Positions 14,168-64,000 of a stretch of 64,000 nucleotides of DNA are shown here, piece by piece. A program made the position numbers and the translations under genes. The notes under the pieces are model-generated. The model did not search any database and had not been told where the DNA came from. It was given only the letters and a program-made list of their open reading frames with translations. The stretch comes from Escherichia coli (lineage in GTDB: Bacteria; Pseudomonadota; Gammaproteobacteria; Enterobacterales; Enterobacteriaceae): assembly GCF_003991155.1 (NCBI RefSeq), contig NZ_CP031293.1, one strand, 5' to 3'. Each line of letters starts with the position of its first letter. Position 1 is the stretch's first letter.

Positions 14168-14179
14168 CACGCTACCGCC
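14168..14179 (-). promoter_or_regulatory. ops element (GGCGGTAGCGTG) in wza leader
   Basis: Reverse complement of 14168-14179 is GGCGGTAGCGTG, the RfaH-recruiting ops consensus, upstream of wza on the minus strand. Confidence 0.7.
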
Positions 14180-14647
14180 CCTGGCTTTTTAGCTACCAAT
14201 ACACTGATTTAGCTTAATTTTTAAAACCCTCTCAACATACAGTCGTTGATGAGAAAGGGTTATTGCGGAAATTAACTTCCGAATATAAGGTGACATTATG
14301 GTAATTGAATATTGGCTCTCCAATAATGCAGGAGGAAGTGTTACAGCTAACGGAATAGCAGGCAAGGTAACAATTCGGCAATTGGCTATTTTTAAGAATT
14401 ATATTAAGTGTCATTCAATATGGTTTTTAGGAGTTTCTTTAGGTTGACAATATTTAATATAGTGTCTCCACATGCGATATTTCTTAAATAATGTTTTATT
14501 ATTACCACTTTTAATTCAGGGATAATGTGAGGTTATAACCCTCAAATAATATGAGATAAATAGTGCTGCAACATTGCATTTTTGCCCCGATTTATCCATG
14601 ATCGAATTGTGACATTTGTCATACAACGAATAGGTTTTGTACTTACT

Positions 14648-16305: not shown

Positions 16306-16644
16306 ATGAGAAAAAAGCTGGCTTTTCTTGATACCAGTCTTGACGATTTACGCGCATTTCCAGAATCGTCTCGACAGGAAATTGGCTATCAACTCGACAG
16401 GATCCAACAAGGGTTAAACCCATACGACTGGAAACCTTTTTCAACTATCGGCCCTGGTGTGCGAGAGATTCGTACTCGCGATGCTGATGGGATCTATCGC
16501 GTCATGTATATCGCAAAATTTGAAGAAGCGGTTTACGTATTGCATTGTTTTCAAAAGAAAACACAGACTACCAGTCAATCGGATGTTGATTTAGCCAAAC
16601 GACGCTATAAAGAACTTGTTCAGGAGCGGAAAAATGAAAATTGA
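16306..16644 (+). CDS. HigB-like toxin (Gp49-like, RelE/ParE superfamily)
   Basis: 112-aa ORF; C-terminal pattern YVLHCFQKKTQTTSQSDVDLAKRRYKEL typical of Gp49-like toxins; toxin-first order, 11-nt overlap with downstream HTH gene. Confidence 0.65.
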   Translation: MRKKLAFLDTSLDDLRAFPESSRQEIGYQLDRIQQGLNPYDWKPFSTIGPGVREIRTRDADGIYRVMYIAKFEEAVYVLHCFQKKTQTTSQSDVDLAKRRYKELVQERKNEN

Positions 16645-16924
16645 AACCTTTGATAGTGTGTGGGATGCGGTGAGTGACACCCCTGAACAAGCGGAAAATA
16701 TGCGGATCCGTGCCGAACTTGTAACGATCATTAATAACTGGATTGAACAACAAGGGTTTAGCCAGGCTCAGGCAGCGTCTGCTTTAGGGGTCACTCAACC
16801 TCGCATATCTGAACTTGCCAGAGGTAAGATCCAGATCTTTAGTATCGATAAATTGATCACCATGATGGCTCATGCAGGATTGCATATTCAACGTATTGAA
16901 ATTCAATATCCACATGCTGCTTAG
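16634..16924 (+). CDS. HigA-like antitoxin (XRE-family HTH)
   Basis: Start at ATG 16634 preceded by aggagcgg SD; HTH segment QAQAASALGVTQPRISELARGK. Confidence 0.65.
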   Translation: MKIETFDSVWDAVSDTPEQAENMRIRAELVTIINNWIEQQGFSQAQAASALGVTQPRISELARGKIQIFSIDKLITMMAHAGLHIQRIEIQYPHAA

Positions 16925-28135: not shown

Positions 28136-28893
28136 GGTAACCACATAGCCAGTGCCAACGTTTTATCATCATCCGTACGCTCGTTTACCGCCGGGCTGGA
28201 CAAAAACTGCTTTAACAATTCAGGTAATAAATCGAGTTGTTCCTGCGTTGCTGACGCCAGTCCATTGAAAAACGGGGTAAAGAAAGGCACATGCGGAGAA
28301 TTATCCAGCATATTTAACGCCAGTCTCTGAATACCATCCGTAAATGCTGCAACTCTATGCGCACGCTCAGTGCTGGTGAAAGTTTCCAGTCTGGAAACGG
28401 CATCTTCATCGGTAATGAAATGCGTCATGTTGGCATATTCACCCACCATCGGCGTGAGAGGCAATTGCAGACCGTGACCCAAATCTACCACCACGCCGCC
28501 ATCGCCAATCTGCATAATCAAGGTGCCGTCAGGCGATGAAATCAGTCCCAGAAATGTGCAGGCAAAATCGCGAACCGCTAATTCTTTGGCTTCCGCCTCG
28601 GCAAAAAGTCGCTGACGAACGGTCAGCACAATATCCGTTGCGAGGACATCATTAAGCCCCAATTCCCCGCCCTGCACTTTTTGCATCATATAAGCCATCG
28701 CTTCATTGACGGCAAGCGTCGCACCTTCGCCACCCTGCGAAACGCTGCCTGCGCCATCAGCGACAAATACCGTCAATAATGGCTGCTGGTCTTCTAGCCA
28801 GGCAACCTGCATCTGGCAGGCATCCTGGCAAGGCAAGTCCGCGCTGATGTGCGACGTTCCAACGGTTGATGCATAGACCAGACGCCAGCTCAC
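28132..28893 (-). CDS. pphC: PP2C-family Ser/Thr protein phosphatase
   Basis: 253-aa ORF; PP2C metal-binding signature ([16 protein letters not shown]); ATGA overlap with yegL stop at 28890-28893. Confidence 0.85.
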
Positions 28894-29549
28894 ACTGACG
28901 TCCAGCCTTTTGGCGCTTCCAGCACAACTTCCGTTCCCGGCGTGGAGCGGGAAACCGAACGCAGCGAACTGGATAACCAGCTAAACAGTTCACGGAATTG
29001 TAATCCCTGCAGTGGCAAAGGCTGACGAACGCTGATTTGTGCCAAAGTCTTCATATCCGCCCCCTGAACACCGATGGAAAAGAAGGCAAACTTCTTATCT
29101 TCTTCCCCCTGAAACACTTTGTTGGCGGCAGCCTGCCACTCATCGGTTGGAGCGCCATCAGTGATCAGGAAAATCCACGGGCGATAATACGAAATACCAT
29201 TGGCACGATACTCACGTTTGCGCTCCTCAACCATATTCAGGGCTTTGGTAATGGCAGCGCCCATTGGTGTATCGCCCTGGGCAAACAGGATGGGCGGGAA
29301 AAAATTAGCGGCGCTGGTAAAGGGTTGTTCCACATGCACCGGGCCGAACGTCACAATACCGAGTTCCACTCTTTTTAAGGCCAGCGAATCGGCAAGCAGC
29401 TCATCGCGAAAGGTAACCAATCCGGCGTTAAGTTCATTAATGGGTCTACCGTTCATAGAACCAGAAACATCCAGCAGCAAAATGCAGGGGCAACGTGGTT
29501 CCGGGTTACTGGCAAAATCGCTGGTGGCAAACGTGATTTGTTCGCTCAT
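28890..29549 (-). CDS. yegL: von Willebrand factor A domain protein (TerY-like)
   Basis: 219-aa ORF; MIDAS motif DVSGSM plus downstream ITDG. Confidence 0.85.
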
Positions 29550-29695
29550 AAGAAATCCTTTCTTAGAGAATTATTGAGGTCCGGTATCATACCGATTGCA
29601 ATAATGAAATAAGAGCAAACGAAGAAACTTTCAGAATTAGGCCCGGCGGCGCAGAAAATTTTGCTATTCGCCTCGCAAGAACGGAGAGCCGTCGA

Positions 29696-29724
29696 TTGAC
29701 ACTAAGGGCGGAGTGACATAATTT
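29696..29724 (+). promoter_or_regulatory. sigma70-like promoter of first Sib RNA
   Basis: ttgaca (29696-29701), 17-nt spacer, taattt (29719-29724); equivalent ttgaca-N17-tacttt recurs in each later repeat (e.g. 30031-30059). Confidence 0.5.
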
Positions 29725-29730
29725 CAGGAG

Positions 29731-29877
29731 TGAGGGTTAGGGAGAGGTTTCCCCCTCCCCCTGGTGTTCTTAGTAAGCCTGGAAGCTAATCACTAAGAGT
29801 ATCACCAGTATGATGACGTGCTTCATCATAACCCTTTCCTTATTAAAAGTCCTCTTCTCCGGGAGAGGGTTTCCCGT
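29731..29877 (+). ncRNA. sib: Sib antisense RNA, copy 1 (approximate ends)
   Basis: Antisense to ibs copy 1, between the promoter and a GC hairpin plus T-rich tract (~29855-29880); ends inferred from recalled K-12 sibA geometry. Confidence 0.55.
29770..29829 (-). CDS. ibs: Ibs type I toxin peptide, copy 1 (MMKHVIILVILLVISFQAY)
   Basis: 19-codon minus-strand ORF read by hand; hydrophobic peptide matching the Ibs family; too short for the ORF track. Confidence 0.75.
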   Translation of the reverse strand: MMKHVIILVILLVISFQAY

Positions 29878-30065
29878 TTCAGCGTCCCGCTGAAATCGTC
29901 GGCTTACCTCCTTTCGCCCTGAATGCAGTCTATCGCTAACGCGTGAACAAAATAGTTTCCTCTGTGATTATTGCGTAACGTCTCGCAAAGAATATTTGCT
30001 GGCAGGATCGCAGACTACAAAGCCTGCGGATTGACAATCTGATTGTGAAGGCATACTTTCAGGAG

Positions 30066-30205
30066 TGAGGGTAGAGCGGGGTTTCCCCCGCCCTGGTAGT
30101 CTTAGTAAGCGGGGAAGCTTATGACTAAGAGCACCACGATGATGAGTATCTTCATCATGACCCTTTCCTTATTTAAGGCCCCTTCCTCGGGAGGGGCTTT
30201 CCCGT
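30066..30205 (+). ncRNA. sib: Sib antisense RNA, copy 2 (approximate ends)
   Basis: Promoter ttgaca 30031-30036 / tacttt 30054-30059; terminator hairpin ~30177-30207. Confidence 0.55.
30102..30158 (-). CDS. ibs: Ibs type I toxin peptide, copy 2 (MMKILIIVVLLVISFPAY)
   Basis: 18-codon minus-strand ORF read by hand. Confidence 0.75.
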   Translation of the reverse strand: MMKILIIVVLLVISFPAY

Positions 30206-30393
30206 TTCAGCGTCCCGCTGAAATCGTCGGCCTACCTCCTTTTGCCCTGAATACAGTCTATCGCTAACGCGTGAACAAAATAGTTTCCTCTGTGATTATT
30301 GCGTAACGTCTCGCAAAGAATATTTGCTGGCAGGATCGCAGACTACAAAGCCTGCGGATTGACAATCTGATTGTGAAGGCATACTTTCAGGAG

Positions 30394-30533
30394 TGAGGGT
30401 AGAGCGGGGTTTCCCCCGCCCTGGTAGTCTTAGTAAGCGGGGAAGCTTATGACTAAGAGCACCACGATGATGAGTATCTTCATCATGACCCTTTCCTTAT
30501 TTAAGGCCCCTTCCTCGGGAGGGGCTTTCCCGT
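30394..30533 (+). ncRNA. sib: Sib antisense RNA, copy 3 (approximate ends)
   Basis: Same repeat architecture, 328 bp downstream of copy 2. Confidence 0.55.
30430..30486 (-). CDS. ibs: Ibs type I toxin peptide, copy 3 (MMKILIIVVLLVISFPAY)
   Basis: 18-codon ORF identical to copy 2. Confidence 0.75.
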   Translation of the reverse strand: MMKILIIVVLLVISFPAY

Positions 30534-30721
30534 TTCAGCGTCCCGCTGAAATCGTCGGCCTACCTCCTTTTGCCCTGAATACAGTCTATCGCTAACGCGT
30601 GAACAAAATAGTTTCCCCTGTGATTATTGCGTAACGACTCGCAAAGAATATTTGCTGGCAGGATCGCAGACTACAAAGCCTGCGGATTGACAATCTGATT
30701 GTGAAGGCATACTTTCAGGAG

Positions 30722-30861
30722 TGAGGGTAGAGCGGGGTTTCCCCCGCCCTGGTAGTCTTAGTAAGCCGGGAAGCTTATGACTAAGAGCACCACGATGATG
30801 ATCCACTTCATCATGACCCTTTCCTTATTTAAGGCCCCTTCCTCGGGAGGGGCTTTCCCGT
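30722..30861 (+). ncRNA. sib: Sib antisense RNA, copy 4 (approximate ends)
   Basis: Same repeat architecture. Confidence 0.55.
30758..30814 (-). CDS. ibs: Ibs type I toxin peptide, copy 4 (MMKWIIIVVLLVISFPAY)
   Basis: 18-codon minus-strand ORF read by hand. Confidence 0.75.
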   Translation of the reverse strand: MMKWIIIVVLLVISFPAY

Positions 30862-31049
30862 TTCAGCGTCCCGCTGAAATCATCGGCTTACCTCCTTTCG
30901 CCCTGAATGCAGTCTATCGCTGACTTGCGGATAAAATAGTTTCACATGTGATTATTGCGTGACGTCTCGCAAAGAATATTTGCTGGCAGGATCGCAGACT
31001 GCAAAGCCTGCGGATTGACAATCGGACCGTGAAGGCATACTTTCAGGAG

Positions 31050-31189
31050 TGAGGGTAGAGCGGGGTTTCCCCCGCCCTGGTAGTCTTAGTATGCTGGGTA
31101 GCTAATCACTAAGAGCACCACGATGATGAGTAGCTTCATCATGACCCTTTCCTTATTTAAGGCCCCTTCCTCGGGAGGGGCTTTCCCGT
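31050..31189 (+). ncRNA. sib: Sib antisense RNA, copy 5 (approximate ends)
   Basis: Same repeat architecture. Confidence 0.55.
31086..31142 (-). CDS. ibs: Ibs type I toxin peptide, copy 5 (MMKLLIIVVLLVISYPAY)
   Basis: 18-codon minus-strand ORF read by hand. Confidence 0.75.
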   Translation of the reverse strand: MMKLLIIVVLLVISYPAY

Positions 31190-31420
31190 TTCAGCGTCCC
31201 GCTGAAATCATCGGCTTACCTCCTTTCGCCCTGAATGCAGTCTATCGCTAACGCGTAGATAAAATAGTTTCCTGTGTTATTACTGGATGCGTGCTCGCAA
31301 AAGTGCCTGCCATTCAGACGATTCCCGACAGTGTTTCATAATTCCTCCATTTTTCTCCCTTATTGGCTGGCTACACTAGTATCATTCCGCGAAACGTTTC
31401 AGGAAGAGAAACTCTTAACG

Positions 31421-32668
31421 ATGAAAGGCAGTTATAAATCCCGTTGGGTAATCGTAATCGTGGTGGTTATCGCCGCCATCGCCGCATTCTGGTTCTGGCA
31501 AGGCCGCAATGACTCCCGGAGTGCAGCCTCAGGGGCGACGAAACAAGCGCAGCAATCGCCAGCGGGTGGTCGCCGTGGTATGCGTGCCGGTCCATTAGCC
31601 CCGGTTCAGGCAGCGACCGCCGTAGAACAAGCTGTGCCACGTTATCTCACCGGGCTTGGCACCATTACCGCCGCTAATACTGTTACGGTGCGCAGCCGCG
31701 TGGACGGTCAACTGATGGCGTTGCATTTCCAGGAAGGCCAGCAGGTCAAAGCTGGCGATTTACTGGCAGAAATTGACCCCAGCCAGTTCAAAGTTGCATT
31801 AGCACAAGCCCAGGGCCAACTGGCAAAAGATAAAGCCACGCTTGCCAACGCCCGCCGTGACCTGGCGCGTTATCAACAACTGGTAAAAACCAATCTCGTA
31901 TCTCGTCAGGAACTGGATGCCCAACAAGCGCTGGTCAGTGAAACCGAAGGTACCATTAAGGCTGATGAAGCAAGCGTCGCCAGCGCGCAATTGCAACTCG
32001 ACTGGAGCCGTATCACCGCACCAGTTGATGGTCGCGTTGGTCTCAAGCAGGTTGATGTTGGTAACCAAATCTCCAGTGGTGATACCACCGGGATTGTGGT
32101 GATCACCCAGACGCATCCTATCGATTTGCTCTTTACCCTGCCGGAAAGCGATATCGCTACCGTAGTACAGGCGCAAAAAACCGGAAAACCGCTGGTTGTT
32201 GAAGCCTGGGATCGCACCAACTCGAAGAAATTAAGTGAAGGCACGCTGTTAAGTCTCGATAACCAAATCGATGCCACTACCGGTACGATTAAAGTGAAAG
32301 CACGCTTTAATAATCAGGATGATGCGCTGTTTCCCAATCAGTTTGTTAACGCGCGTATGTTAGTCGACACCGAACAAAACGCCGTGGTGATCCCCACCGC
32401 CGCCCTGCAAATGGGCAATGAAGGCCATTTTGTCTGGGTGCTGAATAGCGAAAACAAGGTCAGCAAACATCTGGTGACGCCGGGCATTCAGGACAGTCAG
32501 AAAGTGGTGATCCGCGCAGGTATTTCTGCGGGCGATCGCGTGGTGACGGATGGCATTGATCGCCTGACCGAAGGGGCGAAAGTGGAAGTGGTGGAAGCCC
32601 AGAGCGCCACCACTTCGGAAGAGAAAGCCACCAGCCGCGAATACGCGAAAAAAGGAGCACGCTCCTGA
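31421..32668 (+). CDS. mdtA: RND efflux membrane fusion protein
   Basis: ORF-track entry trimmed to [19 protein letters not shown]... (415 aa). Confidence 0.92.
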
Positions 32669-42915: not shown

Positions 42916-43168
42916 TTACGATGCCGGGCGTGGGTTGTTGGCGTCCGGCTTTATATCAAAACAACTCTTAGTTATTGATAATTAAGATTAACCTCCGCCA
43001 TTAAAATAGTGGGCACTGACGAGCACTCGTTGTGCTTTCTTTGTTTACCATCCCATACTTATCTTCCTGAACATGTTCATATGCCAAAATATCTTCTAAT
43101 ACTTTCGTGACGCTATCCGGTTTATGAAATACACTGATGTAAGATTTTTACTTACAGGCGGGTGTAAA

Positions 43169-43420
43169 ATGGCCAGAACGATGACGGTTGATCTCGGCGA
43201 TGAGTTGCGTGAATTTATCGAGTCCTTAATTGAATCCGGCGACTATCGCACCCAAAGCGAAGTGATCCGTGAGTCGCTGCGCTTACTTCGAGAAAAGCAA
43301 GCAGAGTCTCGCCTGCAAGCGTTACGTGACATGCTCGCTGAAGGGTTGAGTAGTGGTGAAGCTCAGCCGTGGGAAAAGGACGCGTTTTTACGGAAGGTGA
43401 AAGCAGGGATAAGGAAATAA
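43169..43420 (+). CDS. ParD-like antitoxin (ribbon-helix-helix)
   Basis: MARTMTVDLGDELREFIESLIESGDYRTQSEVIRESLRLL... typical of ParD/COG3609-type antitoxins; the start is uncertain (alternative in-frame starts at 43124 and 43181). Confidence 0.65.
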   Translation: MARTMTVDLGDELREFIESLIESGDYRTQSEVIRESLRLLREKQAESRLQALRDMLAEGLSSGEAQPWEKDAFLRKVKAGIRK

Positions 43421-43421
43421 T

Positions 43422-43718
43422 GTGCGTACTATAAAACTCATGCCAAAAGCCAATGAGGATTTAGAAGGCATCTGGTATTACAGCTATCACCATTTCGGCG
43501 AACCACAAGCCGACAGATATGTGGAACATCTTTCAGACGTTCTCCAGATTCTGAGTAACAATAATATAGGTACGCCCAGACCTGAATTAGGCGAAGGTAT
43601 TTTTGTTCTTCCTTTTGAACGCCACGTAATTTATTTCCTGCAATCGCCAGAGGAAATTATCGTCATTCGTATCCTTAACCAAAACCAGGACGCCTCCAGA
43701 CATTTACACTGGAGCTAA
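43422..43718 (+). CDS. ParE-like toxin (RelE/ParE superfamily)
   Basis: GTG start 2 nt after antitoxin stop with aagga SD; N-terminal LMPKANEDLEGIWYY motif characteristic of ParE. Confidence 0.65.
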   Translation: MRTIKLMPKANEDLEGIWYYSYHHFGEPQADRYVEHLSDVLQILSNNNIGTPRPELGEGIFVLPFERHVIYFLQSPEEIIVIRILNQNQDASRHLHWS

Positions 43719-45182: not shown

Positions 45183-45266
45183 TTAATTTCGATTATTTTT
45201 CCCGGATGGAAAATTCTTAGAAACCGATCACATACAGCTGCATTTATTAAGGTTATCATCCGTTTC

Positions 45267-45353
45267 GCTGAAAAACATAACCCATAAAATGCTAGCTGTA
45301 CCAGGAACCACCTCCTTAGCCTGTGTAATCTCCCTTACACGGGCTTATTTTTT
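45267..45353 (+). ncRNA. cyaR: CyaR (RyeE) Hfq-dependent sRNA
   Basis: 87 nt gctgaaaaacataacccataaaatgctagctgtaccaggaaccacctcc...cacgggcttattttttt matches the CyaR sequence as I recall it, ending in a terminator hairpin plus U-run. Confidence 0.85.
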
Positions 45354-61491: not shown

Positions 61492-61640
61492 AGTTTGCTC
61501 CTGCCATAACGTGAAGAAGCAATGACCTGGTGGTCCGTGACTTCCCTACGCTGGCATTATCCAGATCAGGTGATACGGGTATTTCTCAGCCTTCACGCAG
61601 AAGGGCACCCCGAGTCGTTTGGTTGAATCTCTATATTTTG
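61492..61640 (-). promoter_or_regulatory. TPP (thi-box) riboswitch in thiM leader
   Basis: Minus-strand leader contains GGGGUGCCCUUCUGCGUGAAGGCUGAGAAAUACCCGUAUCACCUGAUCUGGAUAAUGCCAGCGUAGGGAAGUCACGG... with CUGAGA thi-box and SD-sequestering stem. Confidence 0.85.
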
Positions 61641-61837: not shown

Positions 61838-62077
61838 ATGACAGAAACCCAGATCTACGAGAACATTAAGCAAGCCATTAGCAGCGCACCACGAAATAGC
61901 CAAACGATGGAAATGCACCTCCAGATGATCAAATATGCTGACCATCTGAAAAAGGTTACGGCAAAAGAGTTTTGTGAAGGTGTAGGACTTAAAGCCAGCT
62001 TTGGTACAGAGTTCAGCAAAATGAGAAATCTTACCGAGCGACTCAAAGCTGCTGGACTTGACACCACGAAGTTATAA
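61838..62077 (+). CDS. hypothetical small protein (possible HTH regulator) of island
   Basis: 79-aa ORF in AT-rich DNA with ggtgaga SD; no family recognised; divergent from the minus-strand island genes. Confidence 0.35.
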   Translation: MTETQIYENIKQAISSAPRNSQTMEMHLQMIKYADHLKKVTAKEFCEGVGLKASFGTEFSKMRNLTERLKAAGLDTTKL

Positions 62078-62242
62078 AAAACAAATCATCAATATATTAT
62101 TTTTGTTTTCCAGACTTACTTGCATATGTTTCTACGAGCATAAAAAACAACAACCACCACATAGCTATTACCATAATAATGTTTTCCTTTTATATTAAAC
62201 AGAGAAATAGAATTAGAGCGTGGAATAGATGAATTCTATTTT

Positions 62243-62488
62243 CTATAACTTCTTGAGGTTGAATGTAGAAAAAGACAGCTCTTTCATTTCAATAACACCG
62301 AAATTTGATAGCTGTTTCAGCCAGAATTTTAAACCTGACTCAGAGCAACCTGCTCGATGTAACACATCGCTATATTTTAGCGGTGTTGGCTTTCCTTTAT
62401 AGAGGTAAACAAGCGTTTCGTAGGTGTGTTTTCCGGTGTCGTTACACTGAATGCGGTCTACTTGATTTTTTACTAAATATTGGATCAT
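62243..62488 (-). CDS. hypothetical small protein (possible winged-helix) of island
   Basis: 81-aa ORF 11 nt downstream of the 239-aa gene on the same strand. Confidence 0.4.
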   Translation of the reverse strand: MIQYLVKNQVDRIQCNDTGKHTYETLVYLYKGKPTPLKYSDVLHRAGCSESGLKFWLKQLSNFGVIEMKELSFSTFNLKKL

Positions 62489-62499
62489 AGTCCTCCTTA

Positions 62500-63219
62500 T
62501 TAAAATGGAATGTCAAAATCGTCCTCTTCTGTCTCAGGTATCGTGTATATATGTTCTCTTCCTGTAAATTCAGAAACCACTATTGAAATTAGCCTGTATG
62601 CCTCTATTTTATCGCCCTGCGTTTCAGCTAAAGCCCACTCAAGGGCTGCTTCTGTTGGCTGTCCATTCGGTTTGCAAATAGTGACACCGCCCCAAGGAAG
62701 CTCTGTTTTTTCCTGCTGAATAGAGCGTGTTGTTTCTAGTGTTTTTTTATCTTCCGTAGGGGGAAGCTGTTCAGGAACAGCTTTAACAGTAGATACTTGC
62801 TCTGTCTGTGGCTTTTCTGCATTTACAGAGGCTTTCGCTTCTCTTGGTGCTGTAATATGTGCATCTGTAAAGGGTAATGCTTTATAGAGTGATGTTTGAC
62901 CGTGGCGTGCCTCTACAGAAAGAACTCCCATATCAACAAACATATTTATAATATTGCGTACCTGACGATCACTAACCATTCCAATATTAGCTAATGTTTT
63001 TTGAGTAGCGTAACATTCTTGCCCTTGTTCATTGAATCCAGCTATATAGCTATAGATTTCAACGGCTGGCAGTGTAGCGGTGTATTCATTACCAGATGGT
63101 GAGTACCATTTTTTAAACATCTTCAACCATTGCTCAACAACTACATATTTTTGTTTACCATCTTTCTGATTTAGACATTTGGCTTTCGCTTCGGCAATTG
63201 TTTTGATATTTTTGATCAT
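62500..63219 (-). CDS. phage/island protein with wHTH-like N-domain and SSB-like acidic C-terminal tail (DDFDIPF)
   Basis: 239-aa ORF with perfect AGGAGG SD 5 nt upstream of ATG; low-complexity PQTEQ linker; final residues EEDDFDIPF resemble the SSB C-terminal tip. Confidence 0.6.
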   Translation of the reverse strand: MIKNIKTIAEAKAKCLNQKDGKQKYVVVEQWLKMFKKWYSPSGNEYTATLPAVEIYSYIAGFNEQGQECYATQKTLANIGMVSDRQVRNIINMFVDMGVLSVEARHGQTSLYKALPFTDAHITAPREAKASVNAEKPQTEQVSTVKAVPEQLPPTEDKKTLETTRSIQQEKTELPWGGVTICKPNGQPTEAALEWALAETQGDKIEAYRLISIVVSEFTGREHIYTIPETEEDDFDIPF

Positions 63220-63343
63220 TTAGTTCCTCCTTTGTAAGGACTGTAATTAGTAGTTCATTAACAAGTTTTGGAATTGATTTCCCTTCTGCCTTTGCGCGAT
63301 TTAACAACGCGTTATAAGTTGCAGAGTCAAAATTAATATTCAT
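63155..63343 (-). CDS. ribbon-helix-helix (CopG/Arc-like) small regulator
   Basis: ATG at 63343 with aggagaggaga SD; MNINFDSATYNALLNRAKAEGKSIPKLVNELL fits RHH beta-strand plus helices; 3' end overlaps the next gene by 65 nt, so the true stop/frame is uncertain. Confidence 0.45.
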   Translation of the reverse strand: MNINFDSATYNALLNRAKAEGKSIPKLVNELLITVLTKEELNDQKYQNNCRSESQMSKSERW

Positions 63344-63365
63344 TTGGTTTTCTCCTCTCCTGTTA

Positions 63366-63548
63366 TTATTCTTTCTCTGCTTCTGCCTTACGCAGTTCAT
63401 CAATAATCTTGAGTGCATCGTCAAAGCATTTTTCACGCTCTGGATAACCTCGACTCCTTGCCATATTACGATTCATTACTACTTGATGTCGTGTTAACTC
63501 ACCTTTTTTAAATGCCTCTACGACGTGTTCCGGTATAAACCATTTCAT
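63366..63548 (-). CDS. hypothetical small basic protein of island
   Basis: 60-aa ORF MKWFIPEHVVEAFKKGELTRHQ... directly upstream of the RHH gene on the same strand. Confidence 0.35.
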   Translation of the reverse strand: MKWFIPEHVVEAFKKGELTRHQVVMNRNMARSRGYPEREKCFDDALKIIDELRKAEAEKE

Positions 63549-64000
63549 AAAAAACTCCTTATTCAGTTAAAAGAAAAACACCTTGCAAGCCTGACGGCTT
63601 CAAAGTGCATTGATTTTGATTATTTAGAGAAGAATGTTTTTCTGTCCCTCTAGTACCTATTATTACATATAAATAAACATTTGTCAATATCTTTTCATAA
63701 AAAATCAGAACCTTTTCATGCACTTACATTTTTTCTTAGCGATTCGTGCTCTCCTGTGTAGTGCTATTCTTCATTACCAGCTAAAACGCTCTAAAACGCG
63801 TTCTAACGAAGTTTTGATAAAAGCAATACATTCTCTTATGTAATGGCTGTTTAGCTCGCCAGAGGCTTATTTAAGTGGCTTATTTTGTATTTGTTAGATG
63901 ATGATAGATATAAAACAGAGAGTTCTTAGATTAGTTACTTTATAAAACGCTCTGTAAAGCCCTGTAGTGAGTTTATATATGTAGGCAAAGCGGTTTCCAT

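Follow-up and report, generated by a model that had tools for sequence, protein, structure and literature searches.

The window analysed here (the whole stretch of 64,000 nucleotides of Escherichia coli DNA) carries five ibs/sib units arranged head-to-tail at positions 29696-31190. This region is almost certainly a genuine five-unit tandem ibs/sib array at the canonical yegL-mdtA locus, with unit 1 of the SibA/IbsA type and units 2–5 of the SibB/IbsB type. The family, the locus and the tandem behaviour are all known, and the array is already annotated. The recognition loops of the Sib RNAs vary from unit to unit, and the TRD2 domain is constant in copies 2–5; this combination leads to a concrete prediction on cross-talk between tandem type I antitoxins.

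As the encoded peptides are only 18–19 aa long, the family was assigned from the Rfam matches, from synteny and from the genes that PGAP annotates in an identical record. Five matches to SIB_RNA (RF00113) were found on the plus strand (Table 1), each covering model positions 1–147 of 147, with scores of 138.9–149.5 bits against the gathering score of 56 and E-values from 1e-28 to 3e-31. In each unit an antisense, minus-strand ibs ORF of 18–19 codons lies wholly within the coordinates of the Sib gene. All five peptides begin with MMK, continue with a hydrophobic stretch and have A-Y at the end; their sequences as listed in the initial annotation agree exactly with the translated ORFs. The sequence AAGGAAAGGG precedes every ibs ORF, separated from the ATG by 1–2 nt, and the Shine-Dalgarno (SD) sequence and start codon of each of the five ORFs are located opposite TRD2. 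The yegL-mdtA interval also harbors sibA/sibB in K-12. The window is chromosomal DNA and differs by 4 mismatches over 64 kb from E. coli strain 2016C-3878 (NZ_CP029747.1), which is identical at the array positions and where RefSeq/PGAP annotates ibsA and four "Ibs family toxin" genes. Thus the type I toxin-antitoxin identity, correctly recognised in the initial annotation from the sequence alone, is supported both by the Rfam matches and by the existing annotation.

Tandem Repeats Finder reported the region as a single array (29717-31282, period 328, 4.8 copies, 93% matches, score 2619), and a separate repeat search yielded five in-register copies spaced by 328 bp. The start-to-start distances are 335, 328, 328 and 328 bp; hence the initially suggested repeat length of 328–332 bp holds for the later units at 328 bp, but not for the first one.

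Table 1. Features of the five-unit ibs/sib array and its flanking genes in the window.
Feature	Coordinates	Strand	Basis and remarks	RF00113 match
yegL (vWA-domain protein)	28890..29549	-	ORF; named in NZ_CP029747.1; left flank of the array	
Sib-1 (SibA) promoter	29696..29724	+	-35 TTGACA 29696-29701, 17-nt spacer, -10 TAATTT 29719-29724	
Sib-1 RNA (SibA allele, 144 nt including terminator hairpin)	29732..29875	+	ends by homology to K-12 sibA b4436	29696-29844, 149.5 bits
ibsA, 19 aa, MMKHVIILVILLVISFQAY	29770..29829	-	translation; PGAP ibsA WP_010723109.1; peptide identical to K-12 IbsA	
Sib-2 promoter	TTGACA 30031-30036, TACTTT 30054-30059	+	sequence	
Sib-2 RNA (SibB-like, 136 nt)	30067..30202	+	ends by homology to K-12 sibB b4437	30031-30173, 141.2 bits
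Sib-2 terminator hairpin	~30175-30200	+	consensus fold	
ibs copy 2, 18 aa, MMKILIIVVLLVISFPAY (IbsB with L4I)	30102..30158	-	translation; PGAP Ibs family toxin WP_100792650.1	
Sib-3 RNA	30395..30530	+	sequence identical to Sib-2; promoter -35 30359-30364	30359-30501, 141.2 bits
ibs copy 3, 18 aa, MMKILIIVVLLVISFPAY (identical to copy 2)	30430..30486	-	translation; PGAP WP_100792650.1	
Sib-4 RNA (136 nt)	30723..30858	+	promoter -35 30687-30692	30687-30829, 140.2 bits
ibs copy 4, 18 aa, MMKWIIIVVLLVISFPAY	30758..30814	-	translation; PGAP WP_012767741.1	
Sib-5 RNA (136 nt)	31051..31186	+	promoter -35 31015-31020	31015-31157, 138.9 bits
ibs copy 5, 18 aa, MMKLLIIVVLLVISYPAY	31086..31142	-	translation; PGAP WP_001386901.1	
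mdtA (RND efflux membrane-fusion protein)	31421..32668	+	ORF; named in the identical record; right flank	

The plus-strand Sib promoter noted in the initial annotation was found by sequence in all five units: TTGACA is followed after 17 nt by TAATTT in copy 1 and by TACTTT in copies 2–5. The Sib 3' ends carry a GC-rich hairpin followed by UUUCC, and both promoter and terminator signals are identical to those of K-12 sibA/sibB. In particular, the Sib-1 promoter region is identical in the alignment to the upstream region of K-12 sibA, whose annotated 5' end lies 7 nt past the −10 box. A generic σ70 promoter and terminator scan called no Sib promoter and no Sib terminator in the array, since the −10 boxes match the consensus at 3 of 6 positions only and the U-tract is interrupted. 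The assignment of these signals therefore rests on their identity to K-12 sibA/sibB, and they are predicted to be functional by homology to these expressed genes. A consensus structure was computed by RNAalifold from the five Sibs of the window and K-12 SibA-E. It comprises 37 base pairs, seven of which are maintained by two-sided changes in one or more of the sequences, and recovers the conserved Sib fold, that is, the P1 closing stem, the P5 and P6 hairpins and the terminator hairpin.

By homology to K-12 SibC/ibsC and its relatives, the action of each unit may be outlined as follows. An antisense Sib RNA of ~136–144 nt would be transcribed from the plus strand, starting at its own TTGACA-N17 promoter and ending at an intrinsic terminator, and would pair with the ibs mRNA via two independent domains (Han et al. 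2010, PMC2943612). TRD1, the loop of the P5 hairpin, would pair within the ibs ORF, and TRD2, the single-stranded J1/7 segment, across the ibs ribosome-binding site. Such pairing would block ibs translation and lead to RNase III-dependent decay (for the involvement of RNase III, see PMC4147584). An unrepressed Ibs peptide would insert into the inner membrane and cause depolarisation or a decrease in ATP; IbsC depolarises the membrane (PMC8309996), and the target of Salmonella IbsA is the FoF1 ATP synthase (bioRxiv 10.1101/2025.05.26.656083). The K-12 record describes IbsA, IbsC and IbsE as toxic and labels the other two, IbsB and IbsD, as no more than a 'putative toxic peptide'. Four of the five peptides in the array are of the IbsB type, and their toxicity is accordingly putative.

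Sib-1 differs from K-12 SibA at two positions, and Sib-2 and Sib-3 each differ from K-12 SibB at two positions. Relative to Sib-2, Sib-4 has five differing positions (one in TRD1 and four in the P6 loop), and Sib-5 has six (five in TRD1 and one in the P6 loop). The variation of the IbsB-like units is thus concentrated in two Sib loops, and in the consensus fold the first hypervariable cluster maps to the P5 hairpin and the second to the P6 loop. The P5/TRD1 loop lies opposite ibs codons 14–16 and the P6 loop opposite codons 4–5. The position-specific variation after MMK pointed out in the initial annotation is real and falls where a conserved Sib hairpin has its loop. When 26 SibB-type units were compared over 136 Sib columns, ten columns were highly variable, and all of them lie in one of three elements, TRD1, TRD2 or the P6 loop (hypergeometric P = 2e-5); outside the recognition loops these units are nearly invariant, and Ibs residue 15 is always aromatic (F, Y or W only). 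Among copies 2–5 TRD2 contains no mismatches, and a shared perfect run of 53 nt spans the ibs translation-initiation region. Sib-1 differs from the other four RNAs in TRD1, TRD2 and the P6 loop. The P6 loops read GAGUAU, GAUCCA, GAGUAG and GACGUG.

Given the identical TRD2 and the 53-nt perfect run, we predict that the Sibs of copies 2–5 cross-repress one another's ibs mRNAs, and that Sib-1 does not repress ibs-2, ibs-4 or ibs-5. The opposite reading, strict orthogonality of all five pairs, in which every Sib would repress its own ibs only and specificity would be set by the loop differences and not by TRD2, seems unlikely. It agrees with the concentration of SibB-type variation in the TRD1 and P6 loops, as expected under selection for discrimination, and with repression in K-12 between cognate pairs only, ibsA excepted, as reported in the published K-12 work (PMC2943612). 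However, every non-cognate pair in K-12 has 3–10 mismatches in TRD2, compared to none between copies 2–5. Moreover, in the domain-swap experiments of Han et al. (PMC2943612) either TRD swapped alone sufficed for repression of ibsD. Finally, Sib-2 and Sib-3 are identical in sequence, and hence these two cannot be orthogonal.

The number of units at the yegL-mdtA locus is polymorphic. In a sample spread over 5,422 genomes (60 evenly spaced rows; 11 loci inspected), ~41% had two copies, ~42% three, ~12% four and ~0.7% five, and in some genomes the array is interrupted by IS elements. In K-12 the locus holds two units, sibA/ibsA and sibB/ibsB, in line with the copy number given in the initial annotation, and the expansion relative to K-12 claimed there is correct as one state of a common polymorphism. 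Five copies is the rare upper end of this 1–5-copy polymorphism; together with the existing annotation, this makes the array an ordinary one, and K-12 is not representative of the locus. A single-unit query matched up to 8 places per genome, with 6 in the lineage of the window. Of 11 sequences compared, the window included, 8 encode the copy 4 peptide. The duplicated IL-F allele (WP_100792650) is restricted to approximately 42 of the 5,418 matching records. Genomes with the identical five-copy locus come from many hosts and countries and from unrelated laboratories.

The array has probably expanded through unequal recombination among its 328-bp repeats. Copies 2 and 3 probably go back to a recent duplication of one SibB allele. 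A more elaborate reading, in which the array is a set of rapidly reshuffling cassettes, appears doubtful. According to it, the P5/TRD1 and P6 loops are under diversifying selection and are recombined by unequal crossing-over into lineage-specific combinations of partly orthogonal specificities ({IL, LL, WI} × {F, Y, W}). If true, it would mean that diversity itself is selectively beneficial, which is not yet described at the population scale. It is also quite improbable that unequal crossing-over merely left the extra units behind as neutral by-products, silent or decaying and without added toxin or antitoxin activity. The copy number varies freely from one to five by lineage, which, along with the IS interruptions, suggests that the unit number is weakly constrained. 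On the other hand, an intact ORF, SD, −35 and −10 boxes and a full-length structured Sib match are retained in five of the five units. Combined with the invariance of the 26 SibB-type units outside the loops and the purely aromatic residue 15, this is a pattern of purifying selection rather than decay.

Copies 2 and 3 are 99.4% identical, with an uninterrupted match of 363 nt between them. They had been described as looking identical, and over the transcribed Sib/ibs part this is so, with no differences in the 136-nt Sib; however, two spacer bases per 328-bp unit differ (30289 T vs 30617 C, and 30309 T vs 30637 A). An assembly artefact, with fewer true units and near-identical copies 2 and 3 produced by repeat mis-assembly, has a negligible probability and was rejected: although the 363-nt match exceeds many short reads, no fewer than 31 complete genomes, assembled independently in unrelated laboratories, carry the 2,401-bp five-copy locus at 100% identity (38 at ≥99%), the two spacer SNPs tell copy 2 from copy 3, and other lineages commonly have 3- and 4-unit arrays in the same 328-bp register. 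Hence recent duplication is the preferable of the two options initially offered for these copies, and assembly ambiguity is unsupported.

The five-copy state is real and is stable within one widely disseminated lineage. Beyond correct annotation it matters little. In practice, copies 2 and 3 will be difficult to handle for short-read pipelines and in RNA-seq mapping, because the transcripts of these copies would be identical in sequence.

The closest known system is K-12 sibA/ibsA-sibB/ibsB, which resembles the array in flanking genes, orientation and unit architecture. It has two units instead of five, and the additional IbsB-type alleles of the window (IL-F twice, WI-F and LL-Y) are absent from K-12. 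The 3- and 4-unit arrays at this locus in other E. coli (e.g. O157:H7 strain 4276, JNE12-007, 2017.01.04CC) follow the same 328-bp register and draw on a common pool of unit types. Both WI-F (WP_012767741) and LL-Y (WP_001386901) occur in these arrays as well as in the window, whereas the units differ in order and number. K-12 SibC/ibsC (Han et al. 2010, PMC2943612) has the same fold (P1, P5, P6 and terminator) and antisense layout, and its TRD1 and TRD2 map to homologous columns of the window Sibs. At the same time, it is a single-copy unit at another locus (fau-serA) and has ~58 mismatched alignment columns relative to the SibB-type RNAs. The functional data of Han et al. cover SibC and SibD, whereas units 2–5 of the window are SibB-type; the prediction of cross-repression extrapolates these experiments to SibB-type RNAs. 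The ldr/rdl (LDR) and zorO/orzO systems likewise consist of a small hydrophobic toxin and a cis-encoded antisense RNA, in tandem within one intergenic region (PMC2887945), but their sequences are unrelated to ibs/sib, and the antisense RNA is located 5' of the toxin ORF rather than spanning it (PMC8594479).

A single tandem array was detected between yegL and mdtA at 29717–31282 by Tandem Repeats Finder (period 328, 4.8 copies, 93% matches, no indels, score 2619), and a repeat search of the window yielded five copies in an exact 328-bp register. The Rfam scan of the whole window at the gathering threshold gave five matches to SIB_RNA (RF00113), all on the plus strand, each covering the full model and scoring 138.9–149.5 bits against the gathering score of 56 (E-values from 1e-28 to 3e-31). 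Thus the five tandem ibs/sib repeats of the initial annotation were borne out. Their proposed length of approximately 328–332 bp holds for the last three periods and fails for the first, the start-to-start spacing of the units being 335, 328, 328 and 328 bp.

In all five units the RF00113 matches begin at the −35 hexamer of the Sib promoter and end short of the terminator, so that the model boundaries should not be read as transcript ends. The ends of the antisense antitoxin RNAs (Sib-1 to Sib-5) were taken from annotated K-12 sibA and sibB, which places the RNA starts 36 nt downstream of the match starts. Every unit contains a minus-strand ORF of 18 or 19 codons that begins with ATGATGAAG and is preceded by AAGGAAAGGG; the scripted translations agree exactly with the five peptides reported initially. 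The expected promoter-like sequence was found in every unit, being TTGACA, a 17-nt spacer and TAATTT in unit 1, with TACTTT as the second box in units 2–5. A generic consensus scan called no Sib promoters or terminators in the array, hence their presumed function leans on identity with K-12.

Coordinates of the array components and of other RNA and toxin-antitoxin features in the window
Feature	Position	Strand	Basis or location
RF00113 match, unit 1	29696–29844	+	Rfam scan
RF00113 match, unit 2	30031–30173	+	Rfam scan
RF00113 match, unit 3	30359–30501	+	Rfam scan
RF00113 match, unit 4	30687–30829	+	Rfam scan
RF00113 match, unit 5	31015–31157	+	Rfam scan
Sib-1 RNA	29732–29875	+	K-12 sibA/sibB ends
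Sib-2 RNA	30067–30202	+	K-12 sibA/sibB ends
Sib-3 RNA	30395–30530	+	K-12 sibA/sibB ends
Sib-4 RNA	30723–30858	+	K-12 sibA/sibB ends
Sib-5 RNA	31051–31186	+	K-12 sibA/sibB ends
ParD antitoxin	43124–43420	+	between yegP and yegQ
RelE/ParE-family toxin	43422–43718	+	between yegP and yegQ
RelE/ParE-family toxin	16306–16644	+	between yegH and asmA
HTH antitoxin	16634–16924	+	between yegH and asmA
CyaR sRNA	45265–45350	+	expected core-genome position
thiM TPP riboswitch	61526–61622	−	expected core-genome position
JUMPstart element	14168–14206	−	upstream of wza, expected core-genome position

Together with ParDE and the yegH–asmA pair, the five ibs/sib units make seven toxin-antitoxin modules within 28 kb. 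Only 1,843 of the 5,426 complete genomes of E. coli carry ParDE as a full-length cassette, with partial matches to the 751-bp query in the rest; the yegH–asmA pair occurs in only about 792–910 of the 5,426. Around CyaR, the reference annotation calls no feature between yegQ and yegR. Past the thiM riboswitch, the matching record has an HTH-like domain protein and then three hypothetical proteins annotated at 61838–64000; a variable island may begin in this region.

The five units were aligned with K-12 sibA and sibB, and the RNAs inferred from them were aligned with K-12 SibA–E. Unit 1 carries an allele of SibA/IbsA that departs from K-12 SibA at two positions. Units 2 and 3 carry a SibB allele that likewise departs from K-12 SibB at two positions, one of which changes Leu4 of IbsB to Ile; other alleles of the SibB type occupy units 4 and 5. 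The RNAalifold consensus of these ten RNAs contains 37 pairs, 7 of them kept in at least one sequence via two-sided changes, and matches the published Sib architecture: a closing stem P1, a P5 hairpin whose loop is the first variable cluster, the AUGAUGA/UCAUCAU hairpin P6 whose 6-nt loop is the second, a single-stranded stretch and the terminator. With the covariance-model match, this fold, the canonical locus and a nested antisense hydrophobic ORF of 18–19 aa whose SD lies opposite the second target-recognition domain (TRD2), the array shows all the testable features that define the Ibs/Sib family.

SibC recognises its target through two independent domains, both located where the family varies most: TRD1 (+46 to +68, the P5 loop) pairs within the ibsC ORF, and TRD2 (+99 to +115, J1/7) pairs with the translation-initiation region, the P6 loop being an auxiliary contact; with either domain swapped to the SibD sequence, SibC represses ibsD (Han et al. 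2010, PMC2943612). We mapped these domains onto the Sib alignment, where the numbering agrees with G49CU51 and C107UCCUUC113 of Han et al. Across 26 SibB-type units from 11 sequences (ten genomes in addition to the window), high variability is confined to 10 of the 136 Sib columns: five in TRD1, four in the P6 loop, one at the TRD2 edge and none outside (hypergeometric P = 2e-5, with the units related and the columns not independent). The previously noted variation after MMK is the P6 loop read in the opposite strand. The peptide alleles are combinatorial, with IL, LL or WI at residues 4–5 and F, Y or W, always an aromatic, at residue 15. In IbsC, N-terminal deletions, V5 excepted, do not affect toxicity, and residues 6–19 are required (PMC8309996). 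This tolerance and the invariably aromatic residue 15 fit variation that would act at the level of RNA recognition while peptide function is kept.

Sib-2 and Sib-3 are identical, and Sib-2/3, Sib-4 and Sib-5 differ pairwise at 5–9 positions, every one in TRD1 or the P6 loop. Sib-2 to Sib-5 have no TRD2 mismatches and share a perfect 53-nt run over the complement of the start codon, SD and 5' UTR. In contrast, all non-cognate Sib pairs of K-12 have 3–10 mismatches in TRD2 and 4–9 in TRD1. Sib-1 differs from the others by 3–4 mismatches per element, the longest common run being 14–16 nt. Given the domain swap of Han et al., the shared TRD2 and 53-nt run predict that the four SibB-type antitoxins would cross-protect against each other's toxins, with Sib-1 set apart. 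In their loop-dependent contacts the five pairs may be strictly orthogonal; the common TRD2 of copies 2–5 and the identity of Sib-2 and Sib-3 contradict strict orthogonality. The extra copies are unlikely to be decaying, as all signals are intact in every unit and there is almost no variation outside the recognition loops. By analogy with the K-12 and Salmonella homologues, Sib RNAs would act by translation block and RNase III-dependent decay (PMC4147584), and the toxins would act at the membrane or ATP synthase: IbsC causes membrane depolarisation (PMC8309996), and Salmonella IbsA inhibits the Fo sector (bioRxiv 10.1101/2025.05.26.656083). The four IbsB-type peptides are putative toxins, the K-12 record listing IbsB only as a "putative toxic peptide".

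A megablast search with the locus (29300–31700, 2,401 bases) covered 5,426 complete genomes of E. coli and gave matches in 5,419. Identity over all 2,401 bases is 100% in 31 records and at least 99% in 38. The initial annotation had considered assembly expansion; a one-off event of this kind is ruled out by the identical array in genomes from humans, cattle, pigs, poultry, dogs, sheep, mink, rivers and wastewater of several countries, and an assembly artefact is likewise rejected by the two SNPs separating units 2 and 3. These units, initially described as identical, share an exact run of 363 nt and 99.4% identity, and differ at two spacer bases (30289 T vs 30617 C; 30309 T vs 30637 A).

Copy number was estimated from 60 rows, evenly spaced along the ranked list of 5,422 records with a match, and 11 loci were inspected. 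Two copies were seen in 24 rows (~41%; including K-12, as stated initially, with sibA/ibsA and sibB/ibsB in MG1655, and a variant without any ibsA unit), three in 25 (~42%; including O157:H7), four in seven (~12%) and one, where an IS element cuts the array, in two (~3%). Five copies occur in the window's lineage only (35–38 of 5,422 records, ~0.7%) and are the rare upper end of a common polymorphism. ISEc13 and IS150 interrupt or truncate the array in some lineages, leaving at minimum one unit, e.g. in NZ_LT903847.1 (H74), NZ_OW967795.1 (L014) and NZ_CM128585.1 (H75). A single-unit query matched at most eight places per genome and six in the window's lineage; larger arrays or additional Sib loci may therefore exist. 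Eight to twelve Sib-unit matches fell on plasmid-typed records, including an ibsE-like match on a 785-kb one (H100, NZ_OZ369162.1).

With A for the ibsA unit and IbsB-type alleles named by residues 4–5 and 15, the unit order is A, IL-F, IL-F, WI-F, LL-Y in the window; A, IL-Y, WI-F, LL-Y in JNE12-007; A, WI-F, IL-Y in O157:H7 strain 4276; A, LL-F, LL-Y in TD225-C4; IL-Y, WI-F, LL-Y, LL-F in 2017.01.04CC; and LL-Y, WI-F in ESC53083. Such shuffled orders are the expected outcome of unequal crossing-over among the 328-bp repeats. At 99% identity or above, IL-F occurs in 42 records only, essentially the five-copy lineage, and its two copies differ at just 2 of 328 bases, so the suspected duplication is recent.

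The exact five-unit array is already annotated in RefSeq. In E. coli 2016C-3878 (NZ_CP029747.1; four mismatches to the window across 64 kb), PGAP places ibsA (WP_010723109.1, unit 1) and Ibs family toxins WP_100792650.1 (twice, units 2 and 3), WP_012767741.1 (unit 4) and WP_001386901.1 (unit 5) at the positions of the translated ORFs, between yegL and mdtA. Fozo et al. (2010, PMC2887945) described strain-to-strain differences in the number of type I loci, among them ibs, of which O157:H7 Sakai has seven genes, as well as ibs-sib repetition inside one intergenic region and independent duplications in several lineages. The observation is thus correct but known: to the published family, tandem layout, number variation and variable positions in recognition domains, our analysis modestly adds population frequencies, combinatorial loop alleles and a prediction of cross-repression.
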